This document shows, in pieces, positions 29,365 to 61,371 of a stretch of 64,000 bases of DNA. How positions within the stretch are numbered: position 1 is the first letter of the stretch; each line of letters opens with the position of its first letter. Source of the stretch: Myxococcales bacterium. GTDB taxonomy: Bacteria; Myxococcota_A; Polyangia; Polyangiales; DASUME01. The DNA lies in the NCBI GenBank assembly GCA_047601445.1, contig JASGJH010000001.1, positions 7,808,001 to 7,872,000 of the forward strand, written 5' to 3'. Made by a program: the position numbers and the translations under genes. The notes below the pieces were generated by a model. That model did no database searches. It was given only the letters and a program-made list of their open reading frames with translations, and was not told the origin of the DNA.

Positions 29365-29467
29365 GGTCCTTTCTCGCTCGCGCGCCCCAGGGCGCGCCCG
29401 GTCCTTTCTCGCTCGCGCGCCCCAGGGCGCGCCCGGTCCTTTCTCGCTCGCGCGCCCCAGGGCGCGC
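29365..29467. repeat. 35-bp tandem repeat, about 3 copies
   Basis: GGTCCTTTCTCGCTCGCGCGCCCCAGGGCGCGCCC at 29365, 29400 and 29435 (last copy 33 nt), no spacers. Confidence 0.95.
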
Positions 29468-46463: not shown

Positions 46464-46807
46464 GACTTGGGGAAGAGCTTGAGCACGCGGTCGTGGGTGA
46501 GCTTTTCGACCCCGTCGGCGGGCTGCGCCAGGAAGCCGTCGATGACCTCGTAGGCGTTGTCCCCGAGCACCACGGAAGCCGTTACGTGCTCGCCGCCGAG
46601 ATCGCTGACCTGGACCAACGTCTTCACCTTGCCGACCAGCTCCTGGGCGTCGCCGCCGCCCGCCACCTCGGCGATGAAACGCACCGCGCTGGCAAGTTGG
46701 AAGGGCACCTCTTCGAGCACCAAGGTCTCGCCGTTCAGTTGAGCGCGCCCTTCGGCGACCCAGCTTTCGAGGGCTTCTTGCGGCACGAACACGCGCGCCA
46801 GGGACAT
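46460..46807 (-). CDS. Hypothetical protein, first gene of the hem operon
   Basis: GAGGAG SD, ATGA coupling to sirC, normal protein-like composition. Confidence 0.75.
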   Translation of the reverse strand: MSLARVFVPQEALESWVAEGRAQLNGETLVLEEVPFQLASAVRFIAEVAGGGDAQELVGKVKTLVQVSDLGGEHVTASVVLGDNAYEVIDGFLAQPADGVEKLTHDRVLKLFPKS

Positions 46808-47068
46808 GCGCGACTCCTCGCGAGGGTAGGTCAGGACACCAAAGTCGGGCCGTAGCCCGCGGCCACGCCCGTGGCGCGAAGCGTACCACGCCCGGCAGCG
46901 CGGAGGTAGCCTGGGGTCTCCCCCTGTGGGGCGTAACGCCCGGGGATTGGCGGTCGAACTGACCGCACCAGGCTCATTCGCGGCGAGCCTCGATCGAGAC
47001 ATCGACAGGGGCGCACACATTGACATGGCCCCATGCCGTCTCTACGTTGCCCCTTCAGGAGAAGCAGC

Positions 47069-47398
47069 ATGGCTGGCAAAAACGTACAAGAGTTCAACGA
47101 ACTGAACTTCGACGCCGAGGTCCTCAAGTCGGACGTGCCCGTGCTCGTCGACTTCGCCGCGACCTGGTGTGGCCCGTGCAAGGCCATCGCGCCCTTGGTC
47201 GGTCAGCTGGCTGACGAGTACACCGGCAAGGTCAAGGTCGGAACTATCGACATTGACGACAGCCCGGGCATCGCCCAGCGCTACGGCATCCGCGGCGTTC
47301 CTACGCTCTACGTGTTCAAGGGCGGCGAAGTGGTCGGCAAGCTCGTGGGCGCTGCGCCCAAGCAGAACATCGCTGCGCTCGTGCAGCGGGCGCTCTGA
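47069..47398 (+). CDS. trxA: Thioredoxin
   Basis: WCGPCK active site; AGGAG SD. Confidence 0.97.
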   Translation: MAGKNVQEFNELNFDAEVLKSDVPVLVDFAATWCGPCKAIAPLVGQLADEYTGKVKVGTIDIDDSPGIAQRYGIRGVPTLYVFKGGEVVGKLVGAAPKQNIAALVQRAL

Positions 47399-47444
47399 GC
47401 GAAGCACTCGGCCCCGATTCCAGGGGGCTCGGCACCACGAACAC

Positions 47445-47509
47445 GCGCCGTAGTTGGGCGCCGGTTTGCGCCGTAGTTCGGCGCCAGCACCTCGCGCCGT
47501 AGTCTGCGC
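47445..47509. repeat. Three short GCGCCGTAGT repeats between convergent trxA and dut
   Basis: Copies at 47445, 47468 and 47494, each followed by a (G)GCGC arm. Confidence 0.7.
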
Positions 47510-47965
47510 TTAGCGGCCGGTGCTGCCGAAGCCACCACCGCCGCGCACTGTCTCACCCAGCTCCGCGAGATCCACGCAGGTCTCGAGGTCGACTTGGACG
47601 ACGGGCGCCACGACCAGTTGAGCGATGCGCTCGCCGTGGGCAATGGTGAACGGCGTGTTGCTCAGGTTGACCAGCAGCACGGCGAGCTCCCCTCGGTAGT
47701 CTTCGTCGATGGTGCCGGGCGCGTTCAGCACGGTGATGCCGTGCTTGGCCGCGAGTCCCGAGCGCGGTCGCACCTGGCCTTCGTGGCCCTTGGGTAGCGC
47801 CAGAATCAGGCCCGTCGGAATGCGGGCACGCCCCAGCGGCTCGATGACCACCGGGGCGTCCAGGTCTGCGCTCAGGTCGAGTCCCGCGGCTCCGTGCGTG
47901 GCGTAGCGCGGGACAACCGCACTGGGGCGCACACGAAAAATACGGAGCGTGGGACCGTCAGCCAT
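47510..47965 (-). CDS. dut: dUTP diphosphatase
   Basis: [39 protein letters not shown]. Confidence 0.97.
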
Positions 47966-50900
47966 CAGCGACGTTCGCGCTCGCGGTCAGCCTCGCGGAC
48001 GCGCTCGCGGTTGCGGGCGCGGGCGCGGATGCGTGAGGGACGCTCACGCTCGGTGCGGTCGTCGCGGTCGGAGGTCGAGGCCGAACCCTCGCGCTCTTCG
48101 AAGCGCTCGTCGCGCTCGTCTTCGAAGCGCTCCGGACGGCGTGGAGCGGGGCGCTCGGGCAGATCCGAGGAGCGTGCGCGGCTGGGGCGCTCTTCGTCGC
48201 CACGGCCACGGGCAGGGCGCGCTTCGAAGCGGTCGTCGTCGCGACCCGCTCGGGCCGGACCACGCGCGGGGCGCTCTTCGGCGTCGAGGTCACGCGAGCG
48301 AGGACGCTCGTCGCGGCCACGGCTCGGGAGCTCTTCGTCACGGCCACGCGGGCTCACGGGCTTGCGAGCGGCGCTGCGGTCGTCGAGGTCGCGACCGCGT
48401 GCGGGCTCGTCGCGATCGAACTCACGCCCACGGGCGCGGGGTTCGCGTTCGCTCTCACGCGTGGCGGGCTTGCCGAAGGAGGGACGCTCGTCCTCGCGCG
48501 AACGCGCAGCGGGACGCTCGAGGTCGAGGTCGCGCGAGCGAGCGGGGCGCTCATCGCGATCGAGGTCACGCGGCCGTTCCCGGCTGCGCTCCTCGTCGCG
48601 AGGACGCGCGGGGCGGTCGAGATCGCGGCCGCGACTCGGACGCTCATCGAGCTCCTCACGGGCCTTGACTGGCGTCCGCTCACGGCGGCTCGAATCACGC
48701 TCGAGGTCGCGCGGCTTTTCGTCGCGGCGCTCGAAGCGCTCCTCGCTGCGGGCCGAGCGTTCGCGGCGCGGCTCTTCCTCGCGGCGAGCGGGCTTCTCGC
48801 GCTCGAATTCCCGGCTCTTGGCAGGGCGCTCTTCGCGCTCCTCGCGAGCCTTGAGGCTGGGACGTTCCTCGCGCTCGAAGTCGCGCGGCTTGCGCTCCTC
48901 GCGCTCCTCGCGTGCCTTGAACGCCGGGCGCTCTTCGCGGGCCTTGAAGCTCGGACGCTCTTCGCGCTCTTCACGTGCCTTGAAGCTCGGACGCTCTTCG
49001 CGCTCTTCACGTGCCTTGAAGCTCGGACGCTCTTCGCGCTCCTCACGGGCCTTGAAGCTGGGGCGCTCTTCGCGCTCCTCGCGCGCCTTGAACGCCGGAC
49101 GCTCTTCGCGCTCCTCACGGGCCTTGAAGCTGGGGCGCTCTTCGCGCTCCTCGCGCGCCTTGAACGCCGGACGCTCCTCGCGCTCCTCACGCGGCTTGCG
49201 CTCCTCGCGCTCTTCGCGCGCCTTGAACGCCGGACGATCCTCGCGTGCCTTGAAAGCGGGGCGCTCCTCGCGCTCCTCGCGCGGCTTGAATGCCGGGCGC
49301 TCTTCACGGCCACGTCCGCGTCCTTCGCCGCGCTCGAAGCCACGACGCTCGCCGCGACCTTCCTCGCGCGCTTCGCCACGGCCGTTCAGCTTGCTCGCTG
49401 CTGCCTGGTCGGCGGCCCCGGGCAAGGCGTCCTTGCGCGAGAGCCGGATGCGTCCTTCGCGGTCGATGTTGGTCACCTTCACGGTCACCTTGTCGCCGAG
49501 GTTCACGAAGTCCTCCACGCTGTTCACGTGGTTCCAGTCCATGTCGCTGATGTGGCAGAGCCCATCCTTGCCAGGCAGGATCTCGATGAACGCGCCGTAA
49601 GGCTCGATGCGCTTCACGGTGCCCTCGTAGACCTCGCCGATTTCGGGCTCGGTGGTGAGGCTCTTGATGATCTCGAGCGCCTTCGCCACGGCCGCGCTGT
49701 CGGCCGAGGCCACGCTCACCGTGCCGTCGTCCGCCACGTCGATGCTGGCGCCGGTCTGGTCGACGATGGCGCGGATCATCTTGCCGCCAGGGCCGATGAT
49801 GGTGCGCACCTGGTCGGGCTTCACGCGGATCTGCGTGATGCGCGGCGCGTACTGCGAGAGCTCCTCGCGTGGCGCTCCGATGGCGCGGTTCATCTTGTCC
49901 AGGATGTGCAGGCGAGCCTCACGCGCCTGGTGCAAGGCGCGCTCCAAGATCTCACGGCTCAAGCCCTCGATCTTGATGTCCATCTGGATCGCGGTCACGC
50001 CCTTCTCGGTGCCACACACCTTGAAGTCCATATCGCCGAGCGCGTCCTCGTCACCGAGGATGTCGGTCAACACCGCGTAGCGCTCGCCTTCCTTGATCAA
50101 GCCCATCGCCACGCCGGCCACGGGGGCCTTGATCGGCACGCCCGCGTCCATCAGCGCCAGGGCTCCGCCGCACACGGAGGCCATCGACGAGGAGCCGTTG
50201 GACTCCGTGATCTCCGACACGATGCGCAGGGCGTAGGGGAACTCTTCCGGCGTCGGCAGCACCTTGGCCAGCGCGCGCTCCGCCAGGTTGCCGTGGCCCA
50301 CCTCGCGACGACCGGGGCCGCGCATGGGCTTCACTTCGCCGACCGAGTAGGGCGGGAAGTTGTAGTGCAGCATGAAGTGCTTGTGCTGATCGCCCTGCAG
50401 CGTGTCGAGACGCTGGGCATCGCGGGTGGTGCCCAACGTGGTGGTCACGATGGCCTGGGTCTCACCGCGCGTGAACAGCGAGGAGCCGTGGGTGCGCGGG
50501 AGCACGCCGAGCTCGATGCTGATGGGACGCACCGTGCGGGTGTCGCGACCATCTAGGCGACGGCCTTCGTCGAGCACCTGAGCGCGCATGGTGTTGTAGC
50601 GGAGCTCTTCGAAGGCGTCCTTGAGGGACTGCTCTTCGTTCGGGAACTCGTAAGCCAGCTGGCTCACGGTCTCCTTCTTGATCGCCTTGATGCGATCGGC
50701 GCGCGCGTGCTTGTCAGCGATGTTGCACGCTTCACGCACGTTCCAGAGCGCGGTCTGGCTCACGCGGTCCTTGAGGAACTGCTGCGGGCCCGAGGCGCTG
50801 AAGCTCCACTTCTGCTTGCCTACCGCCTGCTTCATGCGCTCGATGAGCTCGAGCGTGTCCTGCACCGACCGGTGCGCGAACAGGAGGGCCTCGATCATGT

Positions 50901-51492
50901 CCGTCTCGGACATCTCGTCGGCTTCACCCTCCACCATCACAATCGCGTCGCGCGACGCCGCCACCAGGAGCTCGCAGTCGCTCTTCTCCATCTGCTGGAA
51001 GGTGGGGTTCGCGATGAACTCACCGTTCACGCGGCCGACGCGCACGCCGGCGATGGGGCCGCTCCACGGAATCGGGCTGATGTGCAGCGCGGCCGAGGCG
51101 CCGATCATGGCCAGCGTGTCAGGCGGGTTCTCCTGATCGAACGACATCACGGTCGCCACGACCTGGACCTCGCTCAGGTAGCCTTCGGGGAAGAGCGGGC
51201 GGCAGGGGCGATCGATGAGGCGCGAGATCAGCACCTCGTAGTCGCGCAGCTTGCCTTCGCGCTTGAAGAAGCCGCCGGGGATCTTGCCGGCCGCGTAGGT
51301 CTTCTCCTGGTAGTCGACGCTCAGCGGGAAGAAGCTCTGGCCGGGCTTGGGCTCCTGCGTGCCGCACACCGTGACGAGCACGATGGTGTCACCCGCGCGC
51401 ACCAAAACCGAGCCACCTGCTTGCTTGGCGATGCGACCCGTCTCCAGAGTCACGACCTGGTCGCCGATCCGTACCTTCTCTCTAATGATCAT
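47965..51492 (-). CDS. pnp: Polyribonucleotide nucleotidyltransferase with ~480-aa charged C-terminal extension
   Basis: [44 protein letters not shown] and S1 domains to ~aa 690, then an in-frame R/E/D-rich tail whose stop overlaps the dut ATG. Confidence 0.96.
48820..49305 (-). repeat. Coding tandem repeat (~36 nt, RP[S/A]FKAREEREE) inside pnp
   Basis: 12 RP[AS][FL]K units counted in the translation, with synonymous variation between units. Confidence 0.92.
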
Positions 51493-51874
51493 TCAGCGCT
51501 CCTCGGGCCCGCGTTCGGGCCGGGACAAAACACGGAGCGCTGGGGGCTGCGGGCTCGGTCTTCCTTCGGAGTGCTCGAACTCGGTGGTCGAGTGCTCGGA
51601 GCGAAGATCGAAGAGCCGCGGGCCATTCCTTGTGGGAACTCAGCGACCGTGGTGTACGCGCCACTCCGATTTTGAAGGGGCGCTCACGTGAGCACGCTGC
51701 CCGTCGGGCAATGCGCTCTGGCAGCCACCTGGCCTCAGCTGGCCGCCTGTTGGCGAGCGGGTGCAGCCCTAAACTGCGTTGACCCGCCCAAGGGACGCCC
51801 GTCTGGACAGTCCCGGGTCCGTCCCCCCTGGGAACCGACCCTGTTCGGTGCCGGACACCATGTCCGACCCCGTA

Positions 51875-51903
51875 ACCATACCGAGCCATCGGCCCAGTAT
51901 CTA
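51875..51903 (-). promoter_or_regulatory. Candidate pnp promoter
   Basis: Minus strand TAGATA-N17-TATGGT with an upstream T-rich tract, just downstream of the rpsO terminator. Confidence 0.55.
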
Positions 51904-51976
51904 AAAAATTCGCCAGACCCCGTTGCCTGGCCTTCCCCTATTTCGTGCTTCGAAGCGCGCAGGTGGGCGCGCACGC

Positions 51977-52016
51977 AAGAAACGGAAAAGCCCGGGGCGG
52001 TTTCACCGACCCGGGC
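51977..52016 (-). terminator. Intrinsic terminator of rpsO
   Basis: GCCCGGG-TCGGTGAAACCGC-CCCGGGC followed by TTTTCCGTTTCTT. Confidence 0.8.
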
Positions 52017-52024
52017 CAACCCCA

Positions 52025-52294
52025 TCACTTGCGGATGTTGAGTTCCTTGATGACCTTCCTGTAGCGCTGGAAATCCGCGCGCATCAGGTAGTCCAACAAG
52101 CCACGACGCTGGCTGACCATTTGGAGCAGGCCGCGACGGGAGTGGTGATCCTTGGTGTGGGTCTTGAAGTGCTCGGTGAGGTGCTGGATTCGCTCGGTCA
52201 ACAGGGCGATCTGGACCTCGGGGGACCCGGTGTCGGTGGGGTGCGTGCGGAACTTGCTGATCAAGTCCGTCTTGCGTTCTGCTGCAGTCGCCAT
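52025..52294 (-). CDS. rpsO: 30S ribosomal protein S15
   Basis: [23 protein letters not shown]; 89 aa. Confidence 0.98.
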
Positions 52295-52329
52295 CGAAAT
52301 GCTCTCTACGTTGTTCTCTTGGGCGGGCG

Positions 52330-52358
52330 AATATGAAGGCCACCCCCCCGGCCGTCAA
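52330..52358 (-). promoter_or_regulatory. Sigma70-type rpsO promoter
   Basis: Minus strand TTGACG-N17-CATATT. Confidence 0.65.
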
Positions 52359-52413
52359 GGCCGTGACCCGACCAGAGTCAGGCTTGGGCCCCGGTTCGAG
52401 GGGGGCTGGGGGC

Positions 52414-53202
52414 TCAACCCGCGAAAGGAATACGTTCCTTAAGCAGACGGGCCCGTTCCCGGGCCAGCGGGACGCGCGGTGAATCCGGGTGATCAAGGAT
52501 GAGTTCGTAGGTCCCGGCGCCCGCGGGCTCCATCGCCCGGATTTTGTCGATCCGCACCATGGCCCCTCGATGAGAGCGGAAGAACTCGCTCTCCGATAAG
52601 CGCTGCTCCAGGTTCGTCATGGTGAGGTCGAGGGCGAGGCGATCGCTGGCGGTCACGGCCCAGACCAGCTCGTCCTTCATCTCGAAGTAGATCACGTCGG
52701 CCACTTCGACGACCACGTAAACCCCGCCGCGTCGCACGGCGAGCCGCTCGAAGAGGGCCTCCTTGGGGCCGGCCGGGATCGAAGCCGTGGTGGCGGTGGT
52801 GGGGGAAGGGCCGAACGAGTTGGTGTCCTTGCGCAACGCGGCCTGAGCGCGTGCGATGGCGCTGCGAACTCGCTCGAGCCGCGCGGGCTTGAGCAGGTAG
52901 TCGAGCACTTGGGCCTCGAATGCGCGCAACGCGGCGTCGTCATAGGCGGTCACCACGATGACCTGAATGTTCGGGCGCCGACGCTTGAGCGCCTCGGCCA
53001 GAGCGATGCCATCGGGGCCGGGCATGCGTAGATCCACGAACGCCAGCTCGGGGTCTTCACGATCGGCGAGCCTGAGCGCCTCGTGCGCGTCACCGGCCTG
53101 ACCGACCACGTCTACACCACCTACCTCTCCCAACATGAATGCGAGTTCGTCTCGCGCGAGAGGTTCGTCGTCCACGATTATGGCTCGCAGGGGAGCGTTC
53201 AT
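52414..53202 (-). CDS. LytTR family response regulator
   Basis: IVDDEPLAR, FVDLRMP, TAY, DYLLKP, FFRSHRG; ATGA overlap with the kinase. Confidence 0.93.
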   Translation of the reverse strand: MNAPLRAIIVDDEPLARDELAFMLGEVGGVDVVGQAGDAHEALRLADREDPELAFVDLRMPGPDGIALAEALKRRRPNIQVIVVTAYDDAALRAFEAQVLDYLLKPARLERVRSAIARAQAALRKDTNSFGPSPTTATTASIPAGPKEALFERLAVRRGGVYVVVEVADVIYFEMKDELVWAVTASDRLALDLTMTNLEQRLSESEFFRSHRGAMVRIDKIRAMEPAGAGTYELILDHPDSPRVPLARERARLLKERIPFAG

Positions 53203-58857: not shown

Positions 58858-61371
58858 ATGCGCAGGGTGGCCAAGCGAAATCTTCTGCTCGTTGATTCGG
58901 ACCCTCGGAGTTTGAGAGTCCTGGAAGTCAGTCTCCGTAAGGCTGGCTATAGCGTGACTACGTCCGCGGATGTCGACGGCGCTCTCGAGCTCACCGAGCT
59001 CACCGAGCCCGATATGATCCTGGCCGACACGCGCTTGCCTGGGAAAGATGGCTTCGCGCTCGTGGCCGCCCTCAAGGCGCGTCCCAAGTGGGCGGAGATC
59101 CCGCTCGTGTTCCTCTCGAGCGATCCCTCCGTGGAGAGCCGTGTGCGCGGGCTCGAGCTGGGCGTCGAGGACTACCTCACCAAGCCCGTTTACATCCGCG
59201 AGATCCTCACCCGCGTGAATCTCGTGATGCAGCGCAAGGAGCGCGAGGGACTCAGCCGCACCTCCAAGACGCGCTTCGCGGGCGCCCTGGCCGACATGGG
59301 CCTGGTGGACCTGCTGCAGACCATCGATGTCAGCCGCAAGTCCGGCATCCTGCACCTCACCTCCAACGGCAAGAGCGGTTCCGTGTACTTCCATGAGGGG
59401 CGCGTGCTCGATGCCGAGCTCGGCGATCTCTCGGCCGAGGCCGCCATCTATCGCTTCCTGCTCTGGAACGAGGGCGAGTTCGAGCTGGATTTCCGCGATG
59501 TGCGTCGTGAGGACAAGCTCGGGGTCTCCACGCAGGGCCTGCTGATGGAGGGTATGCGGCGGCTCGACGAGTGGAGTCGTCTGCAGGAGCAGCTGCCCTC
59601 GCTCGGCACCGTGTTCGACGTGAGCCATGACGAGCTCTCGCATCGTCTCTCCGAGATCCCGGACGAGATCAACGAGGTGCTCAAGCTCTTCGACGGCCGG
59701 CGGACGCTGGCGCAGGTGCTGGACGAGAGCCGCGGGGACGATCTCGCCAACCTGAACTCCATCAACAAGCTCTACTTCGAGGGCTTCCTGATCGTCCGCG
59801 ATGCTCCGGCGCCCGAGGACAACGGTCCGGGCGACGACCTGCTCATCGGCTCCCTCGAGGGGCCCTACTTGCCGGATGAGGCCGAGACGCTGCTGCCCGC
59901 CGGGGAGCAGCAGGCGCAGGAGGCGCCGGCCCCCGTGGAGTTGGTCGCCCAGTTGGCGGAGCCCTTTGCGCCCGCGGCAGCGGCCCCCGTGACTCCCCAG
60001 TTGGTGGCCCCGGAGCCTGTGGAGGAGTCTGCGGAGACCCCGGTGGCGCTGGCCACGGAGGCCCAGGTGGCCGTATCTCCGGAGACCCCGCTAGCGTTGG
60101 CCCAGGAGGCGCCGGTGGCGTTGGCCGCCATCAAGCTCAAACGCGTCGCCATGAGCGCCGAGAGCGGTGCGTCGACGCGCCGTGTGAGCGCCCGAGAAAG
60201 CCTCAAAACCGAACCCGACTCCCGCGACCCACAAGCAGCAGCCGACGACCAGGCGGCGGCCGAGGATGAGGGCGCGATGGCCAAGCGGGCGAAGAAAATC
60301 AGTATTCCGAGCAGCGAGCCCAGCGCGCCCCGAGCGCCGAGTGCAGACAACGTCATCCAGCTGCCGGTCGGTCGTGCCGAGCCGCCGGCCCTTCCGAGCT
60401 CGGGAAGTCCCGCCGGTGGGCGCTCCAAGAAGGCGCGCCGCAAGGAGAAACGCCAGGCTCGCGAAGTCGCGGCGCGTGCCAACGGCGTGGGACCCACCCA
60501 GGGTGGCATCTCCGAGGTGCCGGGGGCGGCATCGGATCAGGATCCGGACGAGGACGAGATCGAGCGCTTCTTTTCAGAGCCGCCACCAGCTCCGGTGCCC
60601 ACGCCTCAGTGGACGGACCTCGAGGCCGTCGACGCGGATCCGGCGCATCGCAAGCAGGCCCAGCGTGGCCAAACCTGGACCATGTTGGTGCTGGCCCTGG
60701 GAGTGCTCGGGATTGGCGGCTTCCTCCTCTACAACAAGGTCTTCATGCCGACCCCGGCGGACCTTCCGGCCGTGCAGGTGGCTTTGCCCACCCCGGAGAT
60801 GATGCGCGCAGTGCCTGCGGCACCTCCAGCGGCGGCGCCCGCGCACGCAGCGGAGGCCGAAAAGCCCGAGCTCGCGCAGCCAGAGCCCGCCCCCGTCGAA
60901 CCCACCGCGGCCCCGAGTCCGGAGGCGGTCGAAGCGGTCCCGTCTGCCGAATCACCCGAGGCGGCGTTCGAACCCGTGCCCGGCGAGCCCGCGCGCGCCG
61001 AAGCTCCCAAGTCGGTCATCACCGCGTCGGACGCCGAGGGCTACGACACGCTTCTGGCCCAGGCCCGCAAGCAGGGCTATCGCCGCGCTGCCGAGTCGAG
61101 CTACATGCAGGCGCTCTCCATCAATCCCGAGGGAGCCCAGGCCTTGAGCGGTCTGGCCATGTTGTATCTCAACCTGGGCAAGAACGAGCAGGCGCGCGAG
61201 CGTGCGCGTGCCGCCGTCAAGGTCGATCCCAACAACTCCGAAGCATGGATTGTTCTCGGCGCCTCCGAGTCCAGCTTGGGCGACGAGGCGGCTGCCCGTG
61301 AGGCCTACGCGCACTGCGCCGAGCTACCCACGGGCAAGTACGTTCCAGAGTGCCGCCGCATGGTGCGCTGA
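58858..61371 (+). CDS. Receiver + DUF4388 + disordered linker + TM + TPR protein
   Basis: LLLVDSD..ILAD..YLTKP receiver, FAGALADMGLVDLLQ..KSGILHL..LLMEGMRRLDEW, TM near aa 630, C-terminal TPRs; start may be GTG 58867. Confidence 0.85.
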   Translation: MRRVAKRNLLLVDSDPRSLRVLEVSLRKAGYSVTTSADVDGALELTELTEPDMILADTRLPGKDGFALVAALKARPKWAEIPLVFLSSDPSVESRVRGLELGVEDYLTKPVYIREILTRVNLVMQRKEREGLSRTSKTRFAGALADMGLVDLLQTIDVSRKSGILHLTSNGKSGSVYFHEGRVLDAELGDLSAEAAIYRFLLWNEGEFELDFRDVRREDKLGVSTQGLLMEGMRRLDEWSRLQEQLPSLGTVFDVSHDELSHRLSEIPDEINEVLKLFDGRRTLAQVLDESRGDDLANLNSINKLYFEGFLIVRDAPAPEDNGPGDDLLIGSLEGPYLPDEAETLLPAGEQQAQEAPAPVELVAQLAEPFAPAAAAPVTPQLVAPEPVEESAETPVALATEAQVAVSPETPLALAQEAPVALAAIKLKRVAMSAESGASTRRVSARESLKTEPDSRDPQAAADDQAAAEDEGAMAKRAKKISIPSSEPSAPRAPSADNVIQLPVGRAEPPALPSSGSPAGGRSKKARRKEKRQAREVAARANGVGPTQGGISEVPGAASDQDPDEDEIERFFSEPPPAPVPTPQWTDLEAVDADPAHRKQAQRGQTWTMLVLALGVLGIGGFLLYNKVFMPTPADLPAVQVALPTPEMMRAVPAAPPAAAPAHAAEAEKPELAQPEPAPVEPTAAPSPEAVEAVPSAESPEAAFEPVPGEPARAEAPKSVITASDAEGYDTLLAQARKQGYRRAAESSYMQALSINPEGAQALSGLAMLYLNLGKNEQARERARAAVKVDPNNSEAWIVLGASESSLGDEAAAREAYAHCAELPTGKYVPECRRMVR

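Follow-up and report, generated by a model that had tools for sequence, protein, structure and literature searches.

The analysed stretch of 64,000 nucleotides (the window) carries the gene order rpsO-pnp-dut on its (-) strand, in a genome that consists of one 9.5-Mb contig with 66% GC and has a gene content suggestive of a myxobacterium. The pnp ORF (47965..51492, (-)) encodes a protein of 1175 aa, an intact PNPase followed by a long C-terminal tail. The usual gene upstream of pnp, rpsO for ribosomal protein S15, is found at 52025..52294 (-) (PF00312, E 3.7e-38), and dut for dUTPase lies downstream (47510..47965, (-); PF00692) with its start overlapping the pnp stop, the TGA of pnp and the ATG of dut having one base in common. 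Two conserved structures were recognized in the pnp leader. The long stem-loop at 51552..51617 (-), which we take by analogy to be RNase III-site-like, has a 21-nt arm that is invariant in 8/8 genus sequences, and covarying pairs in its upper stem, where four pairs are changed on both sides among the same eight. The second is a hairpin in the consensus fold (51496..51540, (-)) that covers the ribosome-binding site with its Shine-Dalgarno-like GAGGAG and is also present in 8/8 genus sequences. An Rfam search of 46800-52500 gave no match; the leader structures (51496-51617, (-)) are likely an autoregulatory element. Tandem arrays also occur elsewhere in the window, at 29365-29467 (a perfect 35-bp unit in 2.9 copies) and at 60028-60126 (a 24/48-bp unit).

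The PNPase core, delimited by Pfam, motifs and PDB matches, corresponds to aa 1-690 (49423..51492, (-)). Pfam detected two RNase PH domains, the PNPase domain, KH (553-610) and S1 (615-687), and the domain order is thus PH1-helical-PH2-KH-S1. The motifs at aa 75, 431, and 476, presumably those of catalysis and the RNA pore, are intact and conserved across 17 aligned sequences, and PNPases of the PDB match aa 3-697 with an E value of ~1e-230. This gene downstream of rpsO is the sole full-length PNPase copy in the genome. Domain order, catalytic motifs, and rpsO-pnp synteny are like those of bacterial PNPases such as the E. coli, Caulobacter, and other solved enzymes, and the protein can be assigned from its sequence to the PNPase family, with a putative phosphorolytic activity and a putative trimeric assembly. 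Known PNPases are trimeric, from which we assume the trimer here. The solved PNPase chains listed have at most 784 aa and none of them matches beyond aa 700, whereas the window PNPase has 485 more residues.

Composition, conservation and coding status of the tail

The tail comprises 485 aa (aa 691-1175). It begins with a linker and an RG-rich segment (aa 691-731; 49300..49422, (-)) that resembles the short tails seen throughout the order. This is followed by 12 RP[SA][FL]K units, mostly 12-mers, located by TRF and pattern count (aa 732-888; 48829..49299, (-)), by degenerate R/E/D/P units (aa 889-1144; 48061..48828, (-)) and by a conserved, net basic end motif with a predicted helix (aa 1145-1175; 47968..48060, (-)). 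The RP[SA][FL]K pattern occurs 12 times in the tail, nine times in its full 12-mer form, and TRF placed a 36-bp array at 48827-49305; the 12 units after S1 and the open frame to 1175 aa, as described in an earlier note on this DNA, were borne out.

The most abundant residues of the tail are R (27.8%), E (22.3%), A (9.9%), P (9.1%), and D (7.4%). It contains 156 basic residues against 144 acidic ones, is 62% charged and has a net charge of +0.025 per residue; Arg outnumbers Lys by 135 to 21. Its kappa is 0.06 compared with 0.12 after shuffling, indicating that the charges are finely mixed. Pfam found no match on the tail at E<=1. The composition fits disorder, in agreement with the earlier proposal of a disordered tail on an intact PNPase. 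An AlphaFold model, run on the 17-sequence alignment, shows coil with low confidence throughout the tail; because the core was modeled poorly as well (mean pLDDT 40.9), the model is no proof of tail disorder. A single alpha-helix (ER/K) domain was ruled out by the 9% Pro content and a longest Pro-free run of 41 aa. By the definition of Arg-enriched mixed-charge domains in 10.1101/771592 (more than 60 aa, FCR 0.7, charge ratio from 1:0.7 to 1:1.3), qualifying windows numbered 45 at 61 aa and 12 at 100 aa, none of 150 aa was found in the tail, and the whole-tail FCR of 0.62 is below the 0.7 cut; the tail agrees in part with the definition of a mixed-charge domain.

The tail was seen in 8/9 congeneric genomes, the ninth being without that part of the region. 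Complete tails of 414, 473, 524, and 576 aa were present in four of the nine congeners, and in a further one 146 aa are followed, after a gap of 100 N, by about 330 more. All 17 genus tails examined have a net charge of +0.014 to +0.036 and an FCR of 0.56-0.65, Arg makes up 84-98% of their basic residues, and their charges are mixed more finely than in shuffled sequences (z -4.7 to -10). The repeat units vary between species. The earlier note had proposed regularly spaced Phe/Arg stickers, which is not supported for the genus: the Phe-bearing unit is missing from many congeners and the aromatic content of the tails is 1.1-4.8%. What is conserved is the bulk properties together with the end motif and not the repeat unit.

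The end motif, the last 31 residues of the protein, is present in 6/6 genus genomes with an assembled end and in 16 of the best 120 long PNPases (of 636), these 16 having tails of 414-693 aa. Codon differences within the motif among the six genomes were 146 synonymous and 68 non-synonymous, with 14, 27, and 197 differences at codon positions 1, 2, and 3, as counted from genome pairs that are not independent. It consists almost entirely of Arg and Glu with two or three hydrophobic residues, and the last 30 residues have a net charge of +4 to +7 in eight tails. The sole predicted helix of the tail is located here (aa 1155-1174), at a pLDDT of about 60 in a model that is weak throughout. The motif occurs once in the genome. 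A search against 1.84 billion representatives gave three matches, namely two fragments of the same tail type and one unrelated repeat protein, and an Atlas feature search gave nothing above 0.76.

Several results bear on whether the tail is translated as annotated. Differences between full repeat units are 115 synonymous and 28 non-synonymous, falling on codon positions 1/2/3 as 28/20/140, and the choice of Arg, Lys, and Phe codons is the same as in the core. A separately deposited database protein (P0001), whose core is 97% identical, shows the same end on a tail of 510 aa. Public sequencing runs contain only 5-6% of the words and the contigs obtained from them come from relatives; a soil contig of a relative covers the tail end and dut. 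It is hardly conceivable that the tail is an assembly artefact or a read-through of a missed stop after S1. Repeats do break assemblies, and besides the congener with the N gap, three congeners run off the contig inside the tail, after at least 351, 445, and 455 aa. Nevertheless, independent assemblies from several sources agree on the architecture and the end motif, the units differ by synonymous changes, and the soil contig spans the tail end and dut. The artefact reading is largely refuted, and misassembly, against which the earlier claim had to be checked, is countered by the eight congeners and the 16 database proteins. The coupling to dut, also used as a coding argument in the earlier note, stood in so far as it marks the true stop; by itself it is no proof of a coding tail, because a short-tailed relative (L068) has the overlap as well, and the overlap predates the long tail. 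In line with the earlier claim of a real coding tail, the congeners, the database relatives, the synonymous unit changes, and the same end at a 97% identical core indicate that the tail is genuine coding sequence, and we regard it as selected and recurrent.

Long tails and charged regions in other lineages and proteins

Outside the genus, PNPase tails at 17 closed loci of other genera in the order are Gly-rich and 39-249 aa long (median 52), with L019 (truncated) and L029 (stops inside) kept out of the count, and the open-ended L022 and L023 kept out of the range. G005, in which the C-terminal part is absent, was likewise dropped before counting. A phylum sample gave a match in 191/201 genomes, and among the 150 phylum matches listed, a length above 1000 aa was reached by a single other open frame, whose tail measures 6 aa.

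A search for PNPases limited to proteins of at least 955 aa found 636 among 7998 scored candidates, and in 82 of the best 120 the tail is of the mixed-charge kind and no shorter than 200 aa. In a FastTree phylogeny of 231 cores, long charge-balanced tails fall into at least six well-supported clades with short-tailed rows between them, a rough figure because the sample was chosen for length. Planctomycetota, Verrucomicrobiota, and one 'Deltaproteobacteria' MAG are among the members. Most of the long-tail clades have an end motif of their own and some have no clear one; the short end motifs of other clades are hydrophobic or proline-rich. Within Verrucomicrobiota, one subclade has a second S1 that is connected to the first by a very similar linker (four proteins checked); this is the clearest hint that the linker tethers an RNA-binding tip. 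This recurrence in other phyla, the conserved end motif, and the matching KhpB tail described below go beyond the earlier note. No description of long disordered PNPase tails was found in the literature searched, as judged from titles and abstract starts and with few subscription papers covered. One review of BR-bodies (WIREs RNA, 2020), which reportedly surveys disordered regions in decay enzymes, may mention PNPase.

The genome has a single RNase E/G of 509 aa without a C-terminal tail. The enzyme ends 187-191 aa past its catalytic motif in 29/29 matched genomes of the order and is 502-516 aa long in 22/25 measured, the remaining three having internal inserts. Since RNase E/G is without a C-terminal extension in all 29 and most of the PNPase tails are short, its tail-lessness is common to short-tailed relatives. 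In 10/10 assessable long-tailed Planctomycetota (G226 was left out, as its contig ends), RNase E/G has an insert of 141-336 aa with acidic and poly-Arg stretches. The earlier note had proposed to check whether RNase E lacks its disordered region, and in this genome the enzyme has no C-terminal tail. Replacement of an RNase E tail by the PNPase tail was rejected as a rule, with short-tailed relatives being tail-less too and Planctomycetota keeping an insert. Seven RNase E inserts used as a control have blocky charge (z +3.1 to +9.9). The insert is situated inside the N-terminal S1 region of RNase E/G, in place of a C-terminal tail, and was seen in Planctomycetota (L199, L201-L203, L205, L206, L210-L212, and L214) as well as in two genomes of the order (L041 and L057).

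The genome encodes RNase J and a nuclease of the RNB family, and the N-terminal domain of RNase Y was not found in it. None of the other core decay enzymes examined, including RNase J and four DEAD-box helicases, has a long mixed-charge region. Rho was not found in the single-contig genome, where the best tblastn match reached 27% within a portion of the ATPase domain. In the order, the RNA-binding domain of Rho was detected in 18/121 genomes, all within 2/19 families, and Rho is present in 11/11 long-tailed Planctomycetota genomes. A link between the tail and Rho loss was rejected as a rule; Rho is mostly undetected in the order whatever the tail length. One Rho-less species is given among 12 Myxococcota in PMC11347177, so a widespread absence of Rho from large GC-rich genomes may have gone undescribed.

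In a proteome scan for mixed-charge windows, the PNPase tail was by far the longest region with 442 windows, followed by a HARE-HTH/Mrr protein and KhpB with 179 and 125, so that the three longest are all on nucleic-acid-binding proteins. KhpB/Jag (KH + R3H; C1:7988001-7989095, (-); L221:1001-2095) has a 157-aa Arg/Asp/Glu repeat tail. The KhpB tail is 65-203 aa long in five complete genus copies, compared with 0-53 aa (median 9) in 21 other genera, and a long one was found only in this genus among the 22 genera sampled. The HARE-HTH + Mrr-like protein (C1:1974035-1976632, (-); L222), which has long Arg/Asp and acidic regions, was found in 26/30 relatives. Genus-specific growth of its charged regions was not clear, as they have 239-267 residues in six complete genus copies and 206-241 in 3/15 others. 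A 503-aa ORF (C1:3177252-3178763, (-); L223:453-1964), without a Pfam match, ends in RG/F-rich and GGFEKK-type repeats.

Possible roles of the tail

The long-tailed protein appears from sequence comparison to be a new architectural variant of PNPase, and the function of its tail is a matter of interpretation. The reading we prefer, the chances of which we regard as about even, is that the tail is a disordered RNA-capture arm with a basic tip and weak Arg-driven cohesion; its disorder, its cohesion, and RNA binding by its tip are what we infer. An intact housekeeping PNPase would carry a long, charge-neutral, Arg-rich disordered arm tipped by a basic helix, and a PNPase trimer would have three such arms. 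The basic tip and the arginines may catch RNA at a distance, and the captured RNA would be held near the KH/S1 funnel. Many weak contacts between Arg and acidic residues could make trimers cluster with RNA and with other proteins that have a similar tail, for instance KhpB, and the arm would then serve as a built-in scaffold of PNPase. It counts for the capture arm that the units turn over while charge balance, Arg bias, and the end motif are kept, and RNA capture is favored by the PNPases with a second S1 and by the finding that regions of this kind are restricted to nucleic-acid-binding proteins. On the other hand, the spread of tail lengths (414-693 aa) is as expected from slippage-driven repeats, neutral repeat units would yield balanced charge automatically, and long-tail clades without a clear end motif also count against it. 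In addition, a long tail is not needed with a tail-less RNase E/G, because such relatives manage with PNPase tails near 50 aa.

Condensation of PNPase through the tail is plausible, and within the capture-arm reading visible condensates in cells are a tentative prospect, somewhat less probable than the arm itself. According to 10.1101/771592, long repeats of RE and RD form condensates in vitro depending on their length and on Arg, and parts of the tail fall within the charge limits of that study. In PMC9324279, short 24-residue alternating DR peptides showed no phase separation but blocky ones did; by this analogy, the fine charge mixing of the tail would count against condensation. An extended version for this lineage, with its tail-less RNase E/G and neither Rho nor RNase Y detected, in which PNPase scaffolds an RNA-decay compartment and Arg-rich mixed-charge tails are an address code uniting PNPase and KhpB in a bacterial speckle-type sorting that arose several times across phyla, seems to us unlikely.

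The tail can be compared with several known systems. In Caulobacter BR-bodies (PMC10412687), the C-terminal region of RNase E is long, charged and disordered. The PNPase tail, which is long, charged and putatively disordered, resembles it in its attachment to an enzyme of RNA decay and in combining a poorly conserved bulk with a short conserved motif. In BR-bodies, however, PNPase takes the part of a client and the charges of the scaffold are arranged in blocks, whereas here the region is on PNPase itself and, in 17/17 genus tails, finely mixed. This sets the tail apart from a blocky scaffold of the RNase E type, and the likeness to RNase E patterning put forward earlier is not supported. U1-70K-type Arg-enriched mixed-charge domains of nuclear speckles (10.1101/771592) are alike in charge fraction, near-neutrality, preference for Arg over Lys, and association with an RNA-binding fold; the PNPase tail differs in being bacterial, proline-punctuated, and much longer, with an FCR of 0.62 overall. 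Atypical Rho (PMC11347177) and Type II RhlB (PMC13462270) are precedents in which a conserved RNA enzyme carries a disordered extension in particular lineages, and for which phase separation has been shown or predicted. They are other enzymes, and the PNPase tail differs in its C-terminal position, its construction from repeats and its much greater length.

Two other explanations compete with the capture arm. In one, which we consider improbable, the repeats would serve as a soluble spacer without activity of their own and only the end motif would matter, docking PNPase on a protein partner or structure such as RNase E/G, RNase J, a helicase, or the ribosome. This would invert the known arrangement, in which a microdomain of RNase E binds PNPase. 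Well-mixed charge favors an expanded soluble chain in polymer physics, which suits a spacer, as do an end motif conserved while the units turn over and the hydrophobic or proline-rich ends of other clades, which resemble protein-binding more than RNA-binding sites. However, the genus motif, almost all Arg/Glu and net basic, suits RNA better, and a spacer alone explains neither the bias of Arg over Lys nor the matching KhpB tail. The other explanation, slightly less probable still, is near-neutral expansion, in which slippage in a GC-rich genome lengthened a short RG/RD tail and selection keeps only frame, solubility, and coupling to dut. Short RG/RD tails do occur order-wide and grade continuously into tails of up to 249 aa, both the units and the length are free to vary, codons for Arg, Ala, Pro, and Asp/Glu suit high GC, and the KhpB expansion could reflect a lineage-wide tendency. 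Yet no assembled genus tail is below 414 aa, which means that none has contracted again, and the 31-aa motif, under protein-level constraint, exceeds the length that a ribosome-binding site requires. Regions of this kind are also confined to a few nucleic-acid-binding proteins, and about 485 extra residues on an abundant enzyme would presumably be costly.

If the capture-arm reading is correct, PNPases with their own disordered arm of 250-700 residues would represent another way to organize RNA decay, with recurrent arms and clade-specific tips including a second S1 domain, in distinction from BR-body work, in which PNPase is an RNase E client. The genus and its counterparts also offer a natural series of tail lengths and units for studying finely mixed Arg/acid sequences in bacteria, accessible through purified protein or expression in laboratory strains without the uncultured host. 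Among the long PNPases, P0076, P0062, P0082, and P0104 have two or more S1 domains split by low-complexity linkers, and P0068, P0019, P0031, P0035, and P0066 are further proteins of this multi-S1 type.
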